DNA from: Escherichia phage phi2013
Strand: one strand, 5' to 3'
Length of the DNA: 49,833 nucleotides
Sequence record: MT427400.3
Under the pieces are notes generated by a model. That model made no database searches, was not told the DNA's origin, and saw only the letters and a program-made list of their open reading frames with translations. Positions within the stretch are counted from its first letter, which is position 1; each line of letters opens with the position of its first letter. Made by a program: the position numbers and the translations under genes. Below, piece by piece: positions 307 to 49,827 of the stretch.

Positions 307-777
307 ATGACAACCATTACCGTATTTCTGGCTAAAGATGAGATTGATGGCGAAATGTCATTCTTCGCATTTGAGCACAAAACCGGATCGCACTGGCATA
401 TGTATAGCCGCTACACGGTTATCGATATCAACTCATACCGCGCAGGCTCACTTACTGAAAAGCTGGGTTGCTTCATTGGAGCTATCAAGGTGAACAATGG
501 CTGCGAGTGGGCAGATGAGCACGAAGAGCGCCGCATGTGCAATATGATTAACCCGGTCTATCTTGAGTCGTTCGAGCTTGATGCTGATGTGAACATTAAG
601 GTGAGAAAGTCTGGTGAGTTATTGCCAGGGATGCGTGTGCTGACTGGTTACTCGGGCCGTAAGGTGTGGCGCACCGTATCGAAGATTCGCCAGCGTTCTG
701 CAACATGCTACAGCGTATTCTTTGAAGATGGCTGGAATATGATGTCCGGTAGTGAGGTGAAGTATCTCACCAAATAG
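307..777 (+). CDS. hypothetical early protein
   Basis: 156-aa ORF, tightly packed after preceding gene. Confidence 0.55.
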   Translation: MTTITVFLAKDEIDGEMSFFAFEHKTGSHWHMYSRYTVIDINSYRAGSLTEKLGCFIGAIKVNNGCEWADEHEERRMCNMINPVYLESFELDADVNIKVRKSGELLPGMRVLTGYSGRKVWRTVSKIRQRSATCYSVFFEDGWNMMSGSEVKYLTK

Positions 778-817
778 CACGAATTGTTAAAACCGGATCG
801 GGGTATCTTGCTATAGT
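775..817 (+). promoter_or_regulatory. early promoter cassette (TAGCAC-N5-TTGTTA, 22 bp, TGc-TATAGT extended -10)
   Basis: tagcacgaattgttaaaac 775-793; ggggta/tacccc dyad; TATAGT 812-817. Confidence 0.5.
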
Positions 818-855
818 TACCCCATCGAAACGAGATACCAATCAGAGGAATAACC

Positions 856-1086
856 ATGTCAATCGTCAAGAACCAGCAAGCCATCGATTAAACCAATAAC
901 AACCGCTTTGCTATTTTCATCACATCGATAGGTCGCCGATTTGCAGTCAAAGCCGTTCCGGGTGGATACAAAACCTACATGGAAGATAAAGGAAAGTGGG
1001 TGTGGTGCGAAAACCTTGCAAACTTCCTAGTCTGGAATGCAGACCTCCAGGGCTTTGATGATATCAGCACCTTAATTGAGGAATAA
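856..1086 (+). pseudogene. early ORF interrupted by in-frame TAA at 889-891 (nonsense mutation, readthrough or sequencing error)
   Basis: strong SD cagaggaa then ATG 856; 11 codons, TAA, then the same frame stays open 64 codons to 1086; no ATG to restart. Confidence 0.35.
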
Positions 1087-1092
1087 ATAATT

Positions 1093-1320
1093 ATGCCACG
1101 TTACAATAAACAGACTAAACTCACCCGCGTAAACGGGCACATGATTCCGGCTGAATCCACTCACTACGCAATGGGCGCAAAGCACGGAGTCTATTTCAAG
1201 TGGCGCGGTCAATGGAACTTCACGGCGGTTAGTAATTTCTACATGCGCGTCCCAGGTATTGACCCGCAGACGGTCGTAGAGGACTCAATCGGCAACAACA
1301 AGATCGAGGTGCTAAAATGA
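1093..1320 (+). CDS. hypothetical early protein
   Basis: 75-aa ORF. Confidence 0.5.
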   Translation: MPRYNKQTKLTRVNGHMIPAESTHYAMGAKHGVYFKWRGQWNFTAVSNFYMRVPGIDPQTVVEDSIGNNKIEVLK

Positions 1321-1423
1321 ACTTCAATACAATTGCTTTATGGTCTGCCGTCTGGTTCTTCTGTATGGGTCATGTCATGGTTGGAATCGTAGTTATGCTG
1401 CTACTGTGTGCGGGAGCGTTCGA

Positions 1424-1597
1424 ATGATGCGCATTCTGATTTGCATGATGGCGGCGGTCGCACTGGCTATCCTGGTAGTGTCCGGCTGCGGAGAGGCCAA
1501 AGAGCGATGCCATGAAACCGGAAACCAGGTTACTACTTTCGTGATGGTTGGCAACGTATTGCTACCAATCACATCAAATGAAATCACTTGCGAATAG
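1424..1597 (+). CDS. small putative lipoprotein
   Basis: SD gggag 7 nt before ATG 1424; N-terminus MMRILICMMAAVALAILVVSGC has a hydrophobic signal and lipobox-like VSGC. Confidence 0.5.
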   Translation: MMRILICMMAAVALAILVVSGCGEAKERCHETGNQVTTFVMVGNVLLPITSNEITCE

Positions 1598-1606
1598 GAT
1601 GTTAAA

Positions 1607-1798
1607 ATGGCTGATTTTATGCACCAAATGATTGCAGTATTCAAAGGTAGTGATGACCAGGAGGTGAAAGAGTGCTTTACTGTAGACAAGCCTTATAGCG
1701 CATCGCTAACCAGCTTCGGGAATATCTCATTGCTTGATGATAACGGCGACCCCTGGGTATTCGACGAAGACACTGATTGCTTCGAAATTAAAGAATAG
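1607..1798 (+). CDS. hypothetical acidic early protein
   Basis: 63-aa ORF, D/E-rich C-terminus. Confidence 0.45.
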   Translation: MADFMHQMIAVFKGSDDQEVKECFTVDKPYSASLTSFGNISLLDDNGDPWVFDEDTDCFEIKE

Positions 1799-1838
1799 CA
1801 CTTTTTGTTAAAACTCAATATCGGGGTTGCGCTATAGT
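1796..1838 (+). promoter_or_regulatory. early promoter cassette
   Basis: tagcactttttgttaaaac 1796-1814; 22-bp spacer with ggggtt/aacccc dyad; TATAGT 1833-1838. Confidence 0.5.
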
Positions 1839-1869
1839 AACCCCATCGACAACAAACGAGGACACTAAC

Positions 1870-2358
1870 ATGAAAATCAAATTGCTTTGCACTGGCGGTT
1901 ACAAGGGCTTTACTCGCGACCTGGAAGCGGATCCTATCGTGATTGATGCGGTGAAGTGTGATGATAGCCTCGGCGGCTACCGCGTGAAGGTTGACGACCT
2001 GGTGAAAGCTGGCGTGTACGATCTGGGCTATGGACTTTCGGTTAGCCCGGTAGTTGGTCCGGCAGACTTCAACGAGAAGGATGGAACGATGTTCTTCTTC
2101 GAATGGGAAGTCCAGGCAAATCCTAAGCCGCGCAAGGTTCGTCTTCTCAGTAATGGCGGCTACCCGATGCGTCCAGGTTATGAGAATCGCACATTCCCGG
2201 TTATCGTTGACTTTGAAGAAATCACCGCACACTTAGCTTATATCAACGGTGAACAGCTTCATGCTGTTGGATTCGTGGGATGTATGAATCAAGAGGCGCT
2301 ATGCTTCTTCCATTGTAAAGCCGAGCCGTTCGATATTGAGTGCGAGTTAGTATACTAA
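1870..2358 (+). CDS. hypothetical early protein
   Basis: 162-aa ORF with SD acgagg upstream. Confidence 0.55.
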   Translation: MKIKLLCTGGYKGFTRDLEADPIVIDAVKCDDSLGGYRVKVDDLVKAGVYDLGYGLSVSPVVGPADFNEKDGTMFFFEWEVQANPKPRKVRLLSNGGYPMRPGYENRTFPVIVDFEEITAHLAYINGEQLHAVGFVGCMNQEALCFFHCKAEPFDIECELVY

Positions 2359-2399
2359 GCACGAATTGTTAAAAGGGGATTTGGCCTGACTGGTATAAT
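2357..2399 (+). promoter_or_regulatory. early promoter cassette
   Basis: agcacgaattgttaaaa; 22-bp spacer; TGg-TATAAT at 2394-2399. Confidence 0.5.
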
Positions 2400-2429
2400 C
2401 CCCGCATAAACCACTAAGAGGAAAGCATC

Positions 2430-2936
2430 ATGTTAAAATTAGAAGACGTAAAATTCCCGATTAAATTTATCAGCCTAGGTTGCGGTGAAATTACATTCAC
2501 CAGTGAAGATAAAGGCAAGTGGGACAATGATAAAATGTCTCAGCTTAAGTTGGATTGGTTTATCAATCGGCACAATGAAGTAAATCCTGAAAACTCAGCC
2601 AAGAAGGATTACCATTACATTATTAGTGGTAGTCAGGATGCGTACGAAAAGTATGATGGTTGGAAAACTGTTCGATCAATCTTCCACCCCGCAAAGCCAG
2701 AAATTAAACCGATGTTACAATGCGCTCAGATCGAGAACATTCCATTGAGCGCGACGCTAAAAGGAGTGCAGCTTGATGATAAATCCTGGCTTGAAATAAC
2801 CGCCACGCCGAAAACTATTGAAGTGCACGACGATATCGTCACTCTTCTATTGCATTACGGCAGCTTTAAGCACAAAGCGGTATCAGGTGAAATCAGCATT
2901 AAGCGCGGAACACTTGTGCGCTATGAGGTGAAATAA
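2430..2936 (+). CDS. hypothetical early protein
   Basis: 168-aa ORF, SD aagagg. Confidence 0.55.
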   Translation: MLKLEDVKFPIKFISLGCGEITFTSEDKGKWDNDKMSQLKLDWFINRHNEVNPENSAKKDYHYIISGSQDAYEKYDGWKTVRSIFHPAKPEIKPMLQCAQIENIPLSATLKGVQLDDKSWLEITATPKTIEVHDDIVTLLLHYGSFKHKAVSGEISIKRGTLVRYEVK

Positions 2937-3082
2937 TGGCTGCATGGGTTTTGATTATCTTAATGAGTACCGGGCCGGATCACGTATACATGGAAAGTCA
3001 GCAATCATGAAACAAGGTACGGGAAGTAATTGCAGAGAATAAGCCGTTCGGATATGAAGTAAAAACGATGTGCGTTAAACGA

Positions 3083-3125
3083 TAGCACGAATTGCTAAAC
3101 CTTCCGCAAGGCCATTTGATATAGT
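3083..3125 (+). promoter_or_regulatory. early promoter cassette
   Basis: tagcacgaattgctaaac; TTGCTA 3092-3097; 22-bp spacer with aaggcca/tggcctt dyad; TGa-TATAGT 3120-3125. Confidence 0.5.
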
Positions 3126-3165
3126 GGCCTTATTGAAGCAAGGCAACCAATCAGAGGAATCAGCT

Positions 3166-3372
3166 ATGGCTACACGACTAACTCAGTGGCAGATTTACGA
3201 CAAGGCCTCACGCCTTCGTGAATCGCTTCGCGGACTGACGCCGAATGACCGAATGGAGATTATCGGGCACGCATTGCACGAACTAACATCTCAGGACGTA
3301 ATCTATCATTCATGCGGCAATAAATTCTGGAACGTGACATTCGAGGTAAAGAAAGATGAGCAAAACTCATAA
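3166..3372 (+). CDS. hypothetical protein
   Basis: start chosen at ATG 3166 after SD cagaggaa (track ORF begins 3124). Confidence 0.45.
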   Translation: MATRLTQWQIYDKASRLRESLRGLTPNDRMEIIGHALHELTSQDVIYHSCGNKFWNVTFEVKKDEQNS

Positions 3373-3643
3373 GTTAAAAATCGCCCCGATACATTTCATT
3401 GGTGTAATGAACGGAACCAAAACGGCAGAGTTCCGCATCAATGACCGCAACTTCCAGGTTGGTGATATCCTTGAGCTACGCGAGTTCGATCGTGACGACT
3501 TTACCGGGTGGGAAGTTCACGCCAGGGTGTCCGATGTTACAGACGTGACGCCATACATCAATCGCGGTTATGACGAGCAAGAATGCGACTTCACGCAATA
3601 CGTGATGTTATCAATCAAGCCTTACAGGAAGGTTAGACCATGA
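3356..3643 (+). CDS. ASCH/DUF3850-like (PUA-fold) protein
   Basis: 95 aa; pattern GxKTAEFRxNDRxFxVGDILxLxE recalled as typical of DUF3850/ASCH. Confidence 0.55.
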   Translation: MSKTHKLKIAPIHFIGVMNGTKTAEFRINDRNFQVGDILELREFDRDDFTGWEVHARVSDVTDVTPYINRGYDEQECDFTQYVMLSIKPYRKVRP

Positions 3644-4278
3644 AATTTGAGTGCGTATCAAGTAGCGGATCTGGTTTTAAGTGGGGAAAAACTTACAAAG
3701 GTGTTCGCGTAAATGATGACAGCTTCATCATTACTGATGAGAACGGTTGCAACGTGAACGTTGTACGGCGTCACGAATATCAGGAAATTTTCCTGCCTTA
3801 TGGCGGTAGCTCAAAATATATCTTCCATCGAATCGTGGATGGTGTTAAATTTAACGACGTAATCGAAGCAATCAACCAACTGCATAATAAAGAGGTAAAA
3901 TTTATGAAATTCGAATGTATCAGCGACAACACTAAAAAATTTACCGTTGGAAAAATTTACAACGTTCCTTCTGAGCACGCTAAGCACACTTTAGCGCTGA
4001 CCGACGACACAGGCTGCCAACGCATTGCAACCGTGACGCACAATGGCGAAGGTCTTCGCTGGAACAGCGGCGGCACTAAGTTCGCAACTTTCGGTAAGAA
4101 GCGCAAGCGCAATTTCCGCGTCAACGGCAAGATCAACACCAGCAAGATTAGCAACGTCAAGCCTATTAATGTTGACCACAAGCCAGAGCTTGATCTTAAA
4201 GGCAAGGTGGATATTCCTGATATGGCTTTAGCGATCCTTATTCTTGTTGCTCTAATTTCTATCATGCTCATCATGTAA
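3640..4278 (+). CDS. hypothetical protein with internal tandem duplication and C-terminal transmembrane anchor
   Basis: two copies of MKFEC(V/I)S...GK(T/I)Y(K/N) about 85 aa apart; C-terminus MALAILILVALISIMLIM hydrophobic. Confidence 0.55.
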   Translation: MKFECVSSSGSGFKWGKTYKGVRVNDDSFIITDENGCNVNVVRRHEYQEIFLPYGGSSKYIFHRIVDGVKFNDVIEAINQLHNKEVKFMKFECISDNTKKFTVGKIYNVPSEHAKHTLALTDDTGCQRIATVTHNGEGLRWNSGGTKFATFGKKRKRNFRVNGKINTSKISNVKPINVDHKPELDLKGKVDIPDMALAILILVALISIMLIM

Positions 4279-4285
4279 TTTTAAC

Positions 4286-4319
4286 GGGGAATTGGCTCTG
4301 AGCGGTTCCCCTTTCTTTT
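4286..4319 (+). terminator. rho-independent terminator
   Basis: gggga...tcccc stem followed by TTTCTTTT. Confidence 0.5.
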
Positions 4320-4426
4320 GGAGAAAACACTATGCCAGACTTTTCTAACTGGAATAACGAGCCGCCATCATTTCAGGAGTTGCTATTCTGCCTCCTGGTC
4401 CTGACATTATCTCTTAAGGGTGTTTT

Positions 4427-4645
4427 ATGGCTACTATCATAACAGCAGAAGATGCAGCACGCGACGCAGTGGAAGGAATGCGCCCAAATACCTCCAGAAT
4501 AGCACACTACTACAAATCTGAGGTGTCGGCAGTGCAATTGGTCAACGAAATTTTAAGGCTACCACAAGTCGATTCAGCGCGCGTGGTGACGTGCTTAAAA
4601 AATTATTTTTGCATCGCTATTAAAACGAATAGCACGAATTGCTAA
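4427..4645 (+). CDS. hypothetical protein
   Basis: 72-aa ORF. Confidence 0.4.
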   Translation: MATIITAEDAARDAVEGMRPNTSRIAHYYKSEVSAVQLVNEILRLPQVDSARVVTCLKNYFCIAIKTNSTNC

Positions 4646-4672
4646 AACCTATCAAGGGGAATGCGCTATGAT
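4630..4672 (+). promoter_or_regulatory. early promoter cassette
   Basis: tagcacgaattgctaaaac; 22-bp spacer with gggaat/attccc dyad; TATGAT 4667-4672. Confidence 0.5.
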
Positions 4673-4702
4673 TCCCATGCACCAACAAACGAGGAAGCAC
4701 TC

Positions 4703-5149
4703 ATGAAACACTTAATTTGCATTGAAACGCCTAACGACCAGCACACCCTGCACGGCATTGGAATGTTCAAAGGTCACTACATGACAGCAAGTATTCATGA
4801 TTCGCGTTGCGTCAATGGCGATCTGATGATTACGTCAAAAGAAGTAACTCCGTACATTATGCAGAATCTTGGCAATAACGAATATATGGCCTACGGATGC
4901 AATGCGGTGTACAAGCATATCAAGATCAGAAAACGCGTTGTTCGCGCATTCAAGAAAATTGCAATGAAACAATGGAAGATGAGCAAGAAAGATGCTGGAC
5001 GCTGGGCGCGTAACGTTGCAGATTCATACTTCTACCGTAACGGTGAGTCCTGCCACTTCCTTATCGATGAACTTATGGAAAACTACGGCGGCGACTTCAG
5101 TCAGGGTGGCTTTGACGCTTGGGCTGACTACGAGGTCGATTACTGGTAA
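4703..5149 (+). CDS. hypothetical protein
   Basis: start at ATG 4703 after SD acgagga; 148 aa. Confidence 0.5.
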   Translation: MKHLICIETPNDQHTLHGIGMFKGHYMTASIHDSRCVNGDLMITSKEVTPYIMQNLGNNEYMAYGCNAVYKHIKIRKRVVRAFKKIAMKQWKMSKKDAGRWARNVADSYFYRNGESCHFLIDELMENYGGDFSQGGFDAWADYEVDYW

Positions 5150-5192
5150 TAGCACGAATTGCTAAAACTTGCTCAAGGGCATTTGATAGAAT
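5150..5192 (+). promoter_or_regulatory. early promoter cassette
   Basis: tagcacgaattgctaaaac; 22-bp spacer with agggcat/atgccct dyad; TGa-TAGAAT 5187-5192. Confidence 0.5.
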
Positions 5193-5232
5193 GCCCTTCG
5201 TTGAGTTAAGCAACCAATCAGAGGAATAAATC

Positions 5233-5844
5233 ATGGATAAAATTACCATTTGGGGCCAGACAATCAACCTGTTTCTCGGCACGCGCCGCGTAGCAATCTT
5301 TGACTTTGATGGAACACTTAGCGATGGATCTGGTCGACTTCACCTGCTACCTACAAAGGATTTGCACTTAACTGAAAGCTGGTCCGAGTTTAACCGCGCG
5401 GCAATATTTGACAACCCTATCCAAAGCACGATCGATGTGATGAACTCTATGTATGCCGCTGGTCATCATGTGATCATTTTAACCGGGCGAAGTGATGAGG
5501 TGCGTTACGCATCTGAGTTGTGGCTTAAGCATCACGGCGCTCGATATGATTACCTGATTATGCGACCATACACCGATAACCGGAAAGACACAGTAATGAA
5601 AGAAGAGGCGGTGCGCGCGATCGGCATTGATAACATTCTGGCGGCCTGGGATGACTCACCGCAAATTATTCCATTATTCCGCTCACTTGGAATAACCACT
5701 TACGCTGTAGTTGACTATGGCGATAAAGTTCACGATCATTTAAAATCTCACGGGGTAGATGAGGTTTGCAATCATGAACCATCTGAGCCGCTACCGCCAT
5801 TTGGTGAGAAAATTTGCATTAAGTGCAAGGAGTTATTGAAGTGA
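5233..5844 (+). CDS. HAD-superfamily phosphatase, polynucleotide 3'-phosphatase-like
   Basis: DxDGT motif (FDFDGTLSDG), ILTGRS, RKDTVMKEE; recalled as resembling the T4 Pnk phosphatase domain; C-terminal CxxC...CIKC. Confidence 0.6.
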   Translation: MDKITIWGQTINLFLGTRRVAIFDFDGTLSDGSGRLHLLPTKDLHLTESWSEFNRAAIFDNPIQSTIDVMNSMYAAGHHVIILTGRSDEVRYASELWLKHHGARYDYLIMRPYTDNRKDTVMKEEAVRAIGIDNILAAWDDSPQIIPLFRSLGITTYAVVDYGDKVHDHLKSHGVDEVCNHEPSEPLPPFGEKICIKCKELLK

Positions 5845-5952
5845 ACCTATACGAATTTATTGCAGCACATCCGGTACTAACAGTTATCATTCTGTTAATC
5901 ATAAACTCCACCATCATCAATGTGGCGAAATTATTTTTAGGGAGATACTGAC

Positions 5953-6525
5953 ATGAAAACAGCTATCATTTTAAACGGTGCGCCTGGCGCGGGAAAAGAC
6001 ACTATAGGGTGCATCCTGGCTGACACTTACGATCATGTAGCGCTACGCAGCTTTAAAGCTCCAATGTTTGAGATTGCCCGAGCAATCCTGGGTGAGACTA
6101 ATTTTGAGTATTTCATGTTCTTGTATGAGGACCGTCGCTATAAAGAAGAGCCAGCATCAATCCTGAACGGTAAAAGCCCGCGCCAGTTTATGATCTGGAT
6201 TAGCGAGGAGGTTATCAAGCCGCAGTTCGGAAATCGCTTCTTCGGTATGCGAGCGGAAAGCAAGGTGAAAGAGTCTCACTCCCTTTCGGTATTTACTGAC
6301 GGTGGATTCAAAGACGAAATCTTGCAGATGATTGAAGGTGAAATCCAGGTCAAGCTATGTCGAATCCATCGCAACGGTTGCAACTTTGACAACGACAGTC
6401 GCGACTACATCTATCTTGACGATATGATCGGGGTCAACGGTTATCAGGAATGTGACTTCTTCTCTGTCGAAGGTCATCCAGAAATTACCGCTCAGCACAT
6501 AGCCGCCACGTTCATCAACAAATAG
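5953..6525 (+). CDS. P-loop nucleotide kinase, dNMP kinase-like
   Basis: Walker A GAPGAGKDT at N-terminus; LNGKSP motif recalled from T4 gp1-type dNMP kinase. Confidence 0.6.
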   Translation: MKTAIILNGAPGAGKDTIGCILADTYDHVALRSFKAPMFEIARAILGETNFEYFMFLYEDRRYKEEPASILNGKSPRQFMIWISEEVIKPQFGNRFFGMRAESKVKESHSLSVFTDGGFKDEILQMIEGEIQVKLCRIHRNGCNFDNDSRDYIYLDDMIGVNGYQECDFFSVEGHPEITAQHIAATFINK

Positions 6526-18785: not shown

Positions 18786-18861
18786 TCTGTAAAATCATCC
18801 TATCAACTCTATTCACTTAACTTTTAACAAAAAGTGCTATCAACCAATCAGGAGAAACATC

Positions 18862-32544: not shown

Positions 32545-34390
32545 ATGATTGTTTAAGTGATTTTATTTCTTCTTTTAGAGAAGATACTTGCTTTGAAAGC
32601 TCCTGTATCGCAGCTATAGCGTCAAGCAAAAGAACGTTCTCATCCAGTGATAGCGTGTAATCTTCTCCATTCATATTTCCGTACTTTCTAACGTACTGAC
32701 TATCTATGCTCATAAGTTGTTGAGCTATGAACCCTCTCCTTACAGTTTTCTCCTTGTCATAATTGTATGTGAATGATCGGTATTTCATTTTCATCAAATT
32801 ATCAAGCGCCAATCTTGTTTCAATATCATTTATGTCGCTTTTAAGTCTCTCATCTGACACTGGAGACTTTGAAAATATATAGTTGACAGTACCTGAGTTA
32901 TTCCCAAACGTTATGTCGTAACTCTCAGCGTTGAACGATGTATTCCTTACAATGTTACCGTTTGGCTGATTACCTGAAGCTATATCATAATCGTACACCT
33001 GAGATATTACCGCGTGGGGGTGAGAACCATTTGGAAAAATAAGCGAACCAAGAGAGATAAAATTCCTCCAACCGCCGTTGGATACACCAACGCCGCCACC
33101 AACTAAACCAATATAACCGCTGTACTGAGAACTCATCCATGTGTTAGCCAATGTCAAATAGGTATTACCTGGAGCATATCCAGTTCCATTTGGTACTAGA
33201 CCCTTGTTAAAAATCAACTTTCCGTCCAGTTTGAAATCCCACGTTGCCGCGCCCTGCTTATATCTGTCATTGATTGTTGTTATCCTTGTCCATATATCTA
33301 TTTCATTACCTCCCTGCAATTCGAAAGAGGATCTGTACTTATCAACTTCACCAACCTTGAATTTTGAATCAATCCTGCCGCCTGAAGAATCGGAACCGCT
33401 TGGCGGCTCAGAGTCTACATTTTTATAAATAGACCAGTCGTTTACTTTTAGGCCTTTCTCAACCCAACCCTTAGTAGTTGCGTCCATATTGCCTTCAGGA
33501 TCTTTAAGTAACTCTAATGGGGCGTCTGGCCTCAAGTTTTTCCATGATTCTAATTTATCCTCAAGACCAGCTAAATTACCGTCCTTAGTTAAAAGATTGT
33601 CAGCATTAACGCTATTTGCTGCGTCTTTCGCTTCCTGAGCACTTACTGCCGCCGCGTCTTTTGAACTAACCGCATCATCACGCGCCGATTGAGCATCGTT
33701 CTTTGCAGAGGTTGCAGTTTGTGCTGCCGTTTGAGCGTCATTAACGTAACCTGATAAATCACCTTTCGCCTCATTAATGGCCTGAATCGCTGCCGCCTCT
33801 TCAGTGTCAATGTGAGTGATGACAGATGATTCCTTAGATCCGATATCAGTAATAGCCTGTTCCTTTGCTGCATTAATACTACCTACAGCACCGTCAACAA
33901 TTTGTTGAGTCTGGTTCTTGATTGAGTTAGTTTCATCGCGTGCAGCGTTGGCTGCGTCACGCGCTAATTCAGCCTGATTTTGCGCAGCTTGAGAATCAGG
34001 TTTCGCCTTATTCACCTCAGTAACTATTTGCTCAAGTTTATCCATATCAAGCTGATTGATGATATCAAGAGCCGCAGCAATCTCAGTTTCTTTGCTCTGG
34101 TAGTATCGCAGCGTTTCAGCAACGTTTTGAGCTAAGCCGTTTACAGTCAGTGAATCGTTAAGCAGGATCACATACTTACCGTCAGCGGCAGTCTGACCAT
34201 CCGTAGAGATAGCCTTTAACTCAGTGTCGCTCACGATATCGCTGATTACAGCCAGCTTAATTGGTTGCTCCAGGAATACGATAGTTGCACCTACTCGAAT
34301 CAGAGCAAGCTGATCCTTCCATTTTGTATCGGTTCCGCGAACCGTTCCATCTGCATCCATTGATGCTGTACCGCGTCTATATAAAGCCAT
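32543..34390 (-). CDS. tail fibre protein with C-terminal intramolecular chaperone (peptidase S74-like)
   Basis: 615 aa; SDERLK motif about 104 aa from C-terminus (32546-32857); SD aaggag. Confidence 0.8.
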   Translation of the reverse strand: MALYRRGTASMDADGTVRGTDTKWKDQLALIRVGATIVFLEQPIKLAVISDIVSDTELKAISTDGQTAADGKYVILLNDSLTVNGLAQNVAETLRYYQSKETEIAAALDIINQLDMDKLEQIVTEVNKAKPDSQAAQNQAELARDAANAARDETNSIKNQTQQIVDGAVGSINAAKEQAITDIGSKESSVITHIDTEEAAAIQAINEAKGDLSGYVNDAQTAAQTATSAKNDAQSARDDAVSSKDAAAVSAQEAKDAANSVNADNLLTKDGNLAGLEDKLESWKNLRPDAPLELLKDPEGNMDATTKGWVEKGLKVNDWSIYKNVDSEPPSGSDSSGGRIDSKFKVGEVDKYRSSFELQGGNEIDIWTRITTINDRYKQGAATWDFKLDGKLIFNKGLVPNGTGYAPGNTYLTLANTWMSSQYSGYIGLVGGGVGVSNGGWRNFISLGSLIFPNGSHPHAVISQVYDYDIASGNQPNGNIVRNTSFNAESYDITFGNNSGTVNYIFSKSPVSDERLKSDINDIETRLALDNLMKMKYRSFTYNYDKEKTVRRGFIAQQLMSIDSQYVRKYGNMNGEDYTLSLDENVLLLDAIAAIQELSKQVSSLKEEIKSLKQS

Positions 34391-35953: not shown

Positions 35954-35996
35954 TAGCACTTTTTGCTAAAAACGTTTACTTTATGCCGTGTATTAT
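35954..35996 (+). promoter_or_regulatory. helicase promoter cassette (TAGCAC-N5-TTGCTA, 22 bp, TATTAT)
   Basis: tagcactttttgctaaaa; TTGCTA 35963-35968; TATTAT 35991-35996; the palindrome also covers the SD region of the divergent HTH gene. Confidence 0.5.
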
Positions 35997-36033
35997 AGCG
36001 TAAACGTTACAACGATTCAAAGGATTAATAGCC

Positions 36034-39494: not shown

Positions 39495-39528
39495 TTGCTA
39501 AAAATACCCGACGAAAGTCGGGTATAGT
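39487..39528 (+). promoter_or_regulatory. promoter cassette
   Basis: agcactaattgctaaaa; 22-bp spacer with acccgac/gtcgggt hairpin; TATAGT 39523-39528. Confidence 0.5.
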
Positions 39529-41482: not shown

Positions 41483-41516
41483 TTGATAAAAACTCCCGAA
41501 GGGATTCGGGCATAGT
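41476..41516 (+). promoter_or_regulatory. promoter cassette
   Basis: gcactaattgataaaaac; 22-bp spacer with cccgaa/ttcggg hairpin; CATAGT. Confidence 0.4.
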
Positions 41517-49299: not shown

Positions 49300-49815
49300 A
49301 TGAGCAATACCAATCAGGAATTAAAAATCACCGATATGATTCGACTAACCTGCGATGCAATGTATCGCGACAAAGGCATGAATGAGTTCTCTTTCGTGGC
49401 TGATGATATGGCCCTCGAGGCCGCGCGATTCTACTTCCGTGACCAGGAGGTAAGTGATAGCGATCTTGAATCTGCCGCTGCCGGATGGGTGGACCAGAAC
49501 CAGGGTGAGGTGGAGAAGCGATTCAAGTCTGCTTTCATTACGCCAATCATTACCCGGCACTTTTGCAAGTATGGCAAGGTGGCAAAGGTGAAGGTAGGCC
49601 GGAATGACGCTGCAATCACAATGATAACGGTTATCGTTACCGACGAAGAGATTCCCGTGAAGAAGCGCCGCAGTCGGAAGAAAGTTAGCCTGGCCGATTG
49701 CCTGGATTCGTTTGTGGTTGATGTGGGTAAACTGGCTGATAGCGAATTGATGACTCGTGACGTAAACGAGATCGTTCGCCAGATGAAGGCGCATATCGAA
49801 AAGTGTGGACTGTAA
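49300..49815 (+). CDS. hypothetical protein (first rightward gene after the noncoding hub)
   Basis: 171 aa; SD aaagagga; stop lies inside the terminal 26-bp repeat. Confidence 0.55.
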   Translation: MSNTNQELKITDMIRLTCDAMYRDKGMNEFSFVADDMALEAARFYFRDQEVSDSDLESAAAGWVDQNQGEVEKRFKSAFITPIITRHFCKYGKVAKVKVGRNDAAITMITVIVTDEEIPVKKRRSRKKVSLADCLDSFVVDVGKLADSELMTRDVNEIVRQMKAHIEKCGL

Positions 49816-49827
49816 GCACTGAGCGGT
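49802..49827. repeat. terminal direct repeat, identical to 7-32
   Basis: agtgtggactgtaagcactgagcggt at both window ends. Confidence 0.8.

Follow-up and report, generated by a model that had tools for sequence, protein, structure and literature searches.

Positions 856-1086 of the window, the whole 49,833-nucleotide stretch of Escherichia phage phi2013 DNA (MT427400.3) analyzed here, very probably hold a conserved T1-family early gene that was recently inactivated by one C-to-A change at position 890. The slot is an ordinary recent nonsense pseudogene and involves no new mechanism. The window is the complete genome of a T1-like phage, species Tunavirus JMPW1, and shares ~100% identity with vB_EcoS_IME167 (MH051912) and JMPW1 (KU194206). 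The broken reading frame is made up of two parts.

856-891, plus strand: residual 11-codon ORF encoding MSIVKNQQAID, with the start codon at 856-858 and the ochre stop TAA at 889-891.
892-1086, plus strand: relic of the T1 ORF75 orthologue, codons 13-76 and the original stop, recognized from its sequence and the family profile and presumed untranslated.

A sequence-only reading had described an ATG at 856 that follows a Shine-Dalgarno (SD) sequence and a promoter cassette, a TAA at 889-891 that halts MSIVKNQQAID after 11 codons, and 64 further open codons running to 1086 with no ATG able to restart a protein of similar size. This description is borne out. The SD sequence AGAGGAA is found at 844-850 and a cassette copy at 772-792, and the coordinates of the stop are exact. 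Readout of the same frame behind TAA 889-891 gives 64 sense codons (892-1083) that end at TAA 1084-1086. The only in-frame ATG in this tail is at 979 and would open just 35 aa; an in-frame GTG is present at 1000. The open tail is not due to chance: hmmsearch with a profile of 44 intact homologue clusters recognizes the relic at 892-1083 with E = 5e-43.

By its sequence, the slot is orthologous to T1 ORF75 (ST75, YP_003869.1; phrog_11449), a protein of 76 aa. This family comprises an early protein of Tunavirinae and Tempevirinae, and the window copy resembles it over its full length. When Ser is restored at the stop, the window sequence matches phrog_11449 over residues 1-76 with E = 4.8e-50. 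An intact 76-codon frame is a feature of the family that the window copy lacks, with TAA at codon 12, and the copy is thus a pseudogene and not a functional member. The intact 231-nt gene occupies the same position in T1, ISF002, Shfl1, SH6, Chapo, FCWL1, S2_02, and others. The gene order of cassette, ORF75 orthologue, and DUF7274 gene (ST74 in T1) is common to T1, ISF002, Chapo, FCWL1, and atuna, and in T1 itself ORF75 sits within the 2.8-kb terminal repeat. The intact alleles (n = 12) have a median pairwise dN/dS of 0.10 at a mean dS of 0.60. Because they are under such strong purifying selection, the ancestral gene was real and functional. No paralogue able to buffer its loss was found in the window.

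The 3' end of the gene is conserved well beyond the family's close relatives. The last ~65 nt (within 1018-1086) retain 81-83% DNA identity in far more distant Drexlerviridae, namely Enterobacter phage F20, Klebsiella phage RareGolfball, AV106, and IME18, where the remainder of the gene is not alignable. This conservation could come from a strongly conserved C-terminus, from the SD sequence of the next cistron that is embedded there, or from both.

By alignment, a single difference accounts for the break. Codon 12 is TCA (Ser12) in relatives and TAA in the window, a C-to-A change at 890. In an alignment that included 90 nt upstream, C is found at 890 in all 14 other distinct alleles; TCA is carried by T1, ISF002, Shfl1, SH6, Chapo, S2_02, FCWL1, IMG/VR contigs, and metagenome contigs. 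Since every one of these alleles reads C, the mutation is derived. Ser12 is conserved at 90% or more over 44 protein clusters. The nearest intact allele, that of ISF002, is only 4 nt apart in the ORF (98.3% DNA identity). Across 766-1096 the window allele has just three substitutions of its own, at 890, 957, and 990. The change at 957 is synonymous (A/G-to-T). The change at 990 is another C-to-A and results in Asn45Lys; C is present there in 14 of 14 other alleles, and the Asn is near-invariant across the 44 protein clusters. Two of the three specific changes are therefore C-to-A on the plus strand, numbers far too small to speak of mutational bias. Likewise, the relic itself holds one synonymous and one non-synonymous change (N45K), plus A33S in one further assembly (ERZ27292611), which are too few events for a test of relaxed constraint.

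A recent nonsense mutation was among the causes put forward by the sequence-only reading, and it is supported by the 14 TCA alleles, the 4-nt distance to ISF002, and the three allele-specific substitutions. That reading had also proposed a comparison with the orthologous slots of related phages; this was run and gives the sense codon TCA in all 14 other distinct alleles. Classical ochre mutants and unitary pseudogenes of non-essential accessory genes in virulent phages likewise possess one derived nonsense change in an otherwise intact expression unit, and the window allele resembles classical ochre mutants in being viable on non-suppressing hosts. Those mutants are laboratory-selected and conditional, whereas the window allele circulates naturally in many isolates and metagenomes. 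A literature search found no paper that discusses TAA 889-891.

An independent second loss was considered for Shigella phage vB_SsoS_008 (MK335533.1), where codon 12 is likewise a stop (TGA), codon 41 is another, and the -10 element has been destroyed. That one codon would be hit twice has a chance of about 5-6.5%. In the region 2600-6000 of this record, tblastn with the window proteins reveals frameshifts in at least six neighboring genes; almost all of the early-left genes are broken by frameshifts or stops when set against those proteins, and the annotated CDSs are shortened. The left-end sequence is probably poor and riddled with errors, and the case was therefore not counted.

Exactly this TAA recurs in four GenBank genomes (JMPW1, JMPW2, IME167, and Henu5_2), which come from at least three groups. 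It is also present in seven further SRA/ENA assemblies, SRR3470630, SRR3470635, SRR3470642, SRR12157854, ERZ23486431, ERZ23486263, and ERZ27292611, each with a local identity to the window of 99.9% or more. A scan of bacterial genomes found no TAA allele, and a metagenome pattern scan returned two contigs only, both with TCA. A sequencing or assembly error, in which the true genome has TCA at 889-891, had been suggested as well. The codon is one base away from every other allele, as such an error would be, but its recurrence in four GenBank genomes and seven independent assemblies leads us to reject this explanation as almost certainly wrong. Ion Torrent errors are chiefly homopolymer indels and not C-to-A substitutions, which also counts against an error. 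JMPW1 and JMPW2, both from contaminated laboratory cultures, share an Ion Torrent facility, a point in favor of a common artefact, but they were sequenced at 1600-1900x (PMC4919409).

At its two ends, the window has a 25-nt repeat, GTGTGGACTGTAAGCACTGAGCGGT, in common (8-32 and 49803-49827), with 7 and 6 unmatched bases next to it. These 38 nt are missing from related contigs, and the repeat looks like an assembly or circularization junction and not a biological terminus.

The TAA is confined to the JMPW1-type block and is fixed in the JMPW1-type lineage. ISF002, with an intact TCA, has 6 differences from the window in 771-1127, and its flanks are ~12% diverged; the ~98% island spans this gene only. 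Because ISF002 is close within the gene and diverged in the flanks, the mutation is recent and arose on an ISF002-like allele. Since then, a mosaic block has carried the TAA allele to other genomes. At the locus, about 8 kb of Henu5_2 is near-identical to the window, and elsewhere Henu5_2 is 2-4% diverged. JMPW2 shares only window positions 773-2911 (about 2.1 kb, with 7 differences); the gene ahead of the block is an unrelated one, and downstream of the block the divergence is ~7%. The left junction in JMPW2, where T1-like sequence gives way to JMPW1-like sequence, lies between 852 and 890, in the cassette and the gene's conserved 5' portion. The repeated cassettes may, together with such 5' portions, serve as recombination linkers between early-gene modules.

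The expression signals ahead of the dead gene are composed of three elements.

772-792, plus strand: copy of the T1-family direct-repeat cassette aaATAGCACgaaTTGtTAAAA, identified by its sequence and by pattern enrichment.
800-823, plus strand: inverted repeat GGGGTA (800-805)/TACCCC (818-823) around an extended -10-like TGC-TATAGT (809-817).
844-850, plus strand: Shine-Dalgarno sequence AGAGGAA, with seven nt separating G848 from ATG 856.

A 21-nt consensus, aaATAGCACnnnTTGnTAAAA, is reported for TLS, T1, and Rtp with its function left open, and a promoter role of the cassette is treated as unproven in the TLS paper (PMC11447400). The copy at 772-792 fits this consensus, belongs to the GAA subgroup, and is oriented with transcription. 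The stop codon TAG (775-777) of the upstream gene, which encodes 156 aa, falls within it. The T1-family consensus is expected ~76 nt before a start codon; here, ATG 856 is 84 nt from the start of the repeat and 64 nt from its end. The element at 800-823 is the presumed promoter core, which would place the transcription start near A824, and it is identical or near-identical in relatives with the intact gene. The spacing of TTGTTA to TATAGT is 22 nt, which is non-canonical for sigma-70, and a standard promoter scan of the window did not call the cassette promoter at this slot. No transcription-start mapping for Drexlerviridae was found in the literature.

The pattern TTGYTAAAA-N19-TATART has 17 matches in the window versus 0.38 expected. 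Fifteen copies were examined, leaving out two weaker matches at 33204 and 18797-18830. All the other examined copies precede a start codon with an ORF of at least 58 aa, mostly with an SD-like site, and the copy at 784 opens 11 codons only. The claim that this is the sole cassette slot without an intact ORF thus holds among the 15 copies examined.

Most T1-family cassettes also possess a perfect inverted repeat of 6-9 bp directly after TTGnTAAAA, which brackets or abuts the -10-like TATAGT. An inverted repeat of at least 6 bp is present in 11 of the 15 window copies versus 7% of random 41-nt windows, and in TLS in 8 of 16 cassettes versus 8.8% of random windows. The window copies are as follows.

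45-85, 784-823, 1805-1845, 2366-2403, 3092-3132, 4639-4675, 5159-5199, 35963-36010, 39495-39525, and 41483-41512, plus strand: cassette copies with the inverted repeat.
47242-47200, minus strand: cassette copy with the inverted repeat.

The arms of the repeat vary between copies while their complementarity is kept. At the orthologous slot of atuna, for example, TGCGCT/AGCGCA stands in place of GGGGTA/TACCCC. At T1-type promoters, the inverted repeat may form a hairpin or cruciform in the DNA, or it may be the site of a regulator. The TLS paper covers the 21-nt direct repeat only and not this inverted repeat (PMC11447400).

Four cistrons follow the dead gene.

1093-1320, plus strand: DUF7274 cistron.
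1317-1427, plus strand: second downstream cistron.
1424-1597, plus strand: third downstream cistron.
1607-1798, plus strand: fourth downstream cistron.

These cistrons have no cassette of their own, the next copy being at 1805, and no terminator-like site was found on the plus strand between 784 and 1805. The cassette promoter would still fire, and ribosomes would load at the strong SD sequence. The 11-residue peptide would then be made and released at 891, and the remaining 195 nt would be an untranslated spacer ahead of the next cistron. The stretch expected to be free of ribosomes before the start at 1093 is 201 nt long (892-1092). The SD sequence of the first downstream cistron, GAGGAA (1078-1083), lies within the final codons of the dead ORF, and therefore any translational coupling is lost. 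In the 80 nt that follow the stop, C is only mildly in excess (C/G 1.31, near the 90th percentile for the early region). Rho polarity on the downstream cistrons is possible and evidently tolerated. The pristine state of the promoter and SD sequence would reflect both a young mutation and selection acting through the cistrons at 1093-1798. Both signals probably persist because the four cistrons also depend on them, and selection would preserve the promoter because this is the only cassette that serves them.

Stop-codon readthrough, also raised by the sequence-only reading, would mean that the UAA is read through at a useful rate, whether programmed or via a suppressor, and that full-length gp75 is made. 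The Q-beta A1 protein is an example of programmed readthrough, in which an in-frame stop precedes a long open frame, as it does here. The downstream frame is wholly open and nearly unchanged, and the base after the stop is A. Known readthrough stops, however, are conserved and leaky (UGA or UAG), whereas the window has a lineage-specific UAA for a conserved Ser and no stimulatory element. The stop is derived, with TCA in 14 of 14 other alleles, and of the three stop codons UAA is generally the least leaky in E. coli. No phage tRNA genes were found in the window and no Rfam match in 600-1400, and the RNA fold at 826-1130 is no better than that of shuffled controls (z = +0.54). Phages with the TAA allele have been isolated on JM109, JM110, BL21(DE3), and BW25113, none of which is known to possess an ochre suppressor. 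BL21(DE3) and BW25113 are sup0, and JM109 and JM110 have only the amber suppressor supE44, which reads UAG. Readthrough is thus unsupported and highly improbable, and the youth of the mutation is enough to explain why the frame behind the stop is open. Quite improbable, too, is a C-terminal mini-protein with retained function, made by restart within the following feature.

979-1086, plus strand: 35-aa ORF, annotated as a CDS in the GenBank records of JMPW1, JMPW2, and Henu5_2 and the source of phrog_30837.

Such a protein would have 35 aa from ATG 979 or 28 aa from GTG 1000. The C-terminal 25 residues are the best-conserved part of the family, and AAGGA lies six nt upstream of GTG 1000, strengthened by the clade-specific C990A. 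ATG 979, in contrast, has no usable SD sequence, the sole SD-like stretch being an imperfect GGTGG 13 nt upstream, and Met42 is not conserved as a start, with Ile or Arg in some homologues. In an AF2 model (pLDDT 91.6), the N-terminal helix and three of five strands fall outside the fragment, which is therefore unlikely to fold. The family phrog_30837 matches restored residues 42-76 exactly (E = 5.2e-29) and is made up of truncated calls only. It is a fragment of phrog_11449 and not a separate family, and it appears to stem solely from the ATG 979 calls in JMPW1 and JMPW2. The CDS at 979-1086 most likely arose as an artefact when the truncated gene was annotated.

If the gene was recently inactivated by the change at 890, its loss may have been selected, with gp75 being costly, being harmful in certain hosts, or being sensed by, or triggering, host defense, and the knockout spread by recombination. 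Phage escape from abortive-infection systems typically proceeds through nonsense mutations in non-essential trigger genes. The block with the allele is found in at least two other backgrounds, JMPW2 and Henu5_2, and the lineage is common in public data, with the adjacent protein in 33 index blocks. If this were true, the TAA would have made a sweep among JMPW1-type phages, both laboratory-associated and environmental, and JMPW2 and Henu5_2 would have gained it when they recombined at the cassette and the conserved 5' end. However, the T1-like phages SH2, FCWL1, and LeonhardEuler, which were isolated on K-12 or B, keep the gene intact, and the apparent second loss in vB_SsoS_008 is unreliable given its frameshifts. 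Hitch-hiking with neighboring genes accounts for the spread equally well, and a selected loss is rather unlikely.

The 35-aa CDSs in the JMPW1, JMPW2, and Henu5_2 records, as well as phrog_30837, should be treated as pseudogene fragments. T1-like phages are notorious laboratory contaminants, and A890 provides a clean marker for following the JMPW1-type contaminant lineage. Because TAA phages were isolated on JM109, JM110, BL21(DE3), and BW25113, lytic growth on common laboratory E. coli probably does not require the ORF75 family. The allele amounts to a natural ORF75 knockout that is useful for dissecting the early region of T1-like phages, though its practical value is modest.
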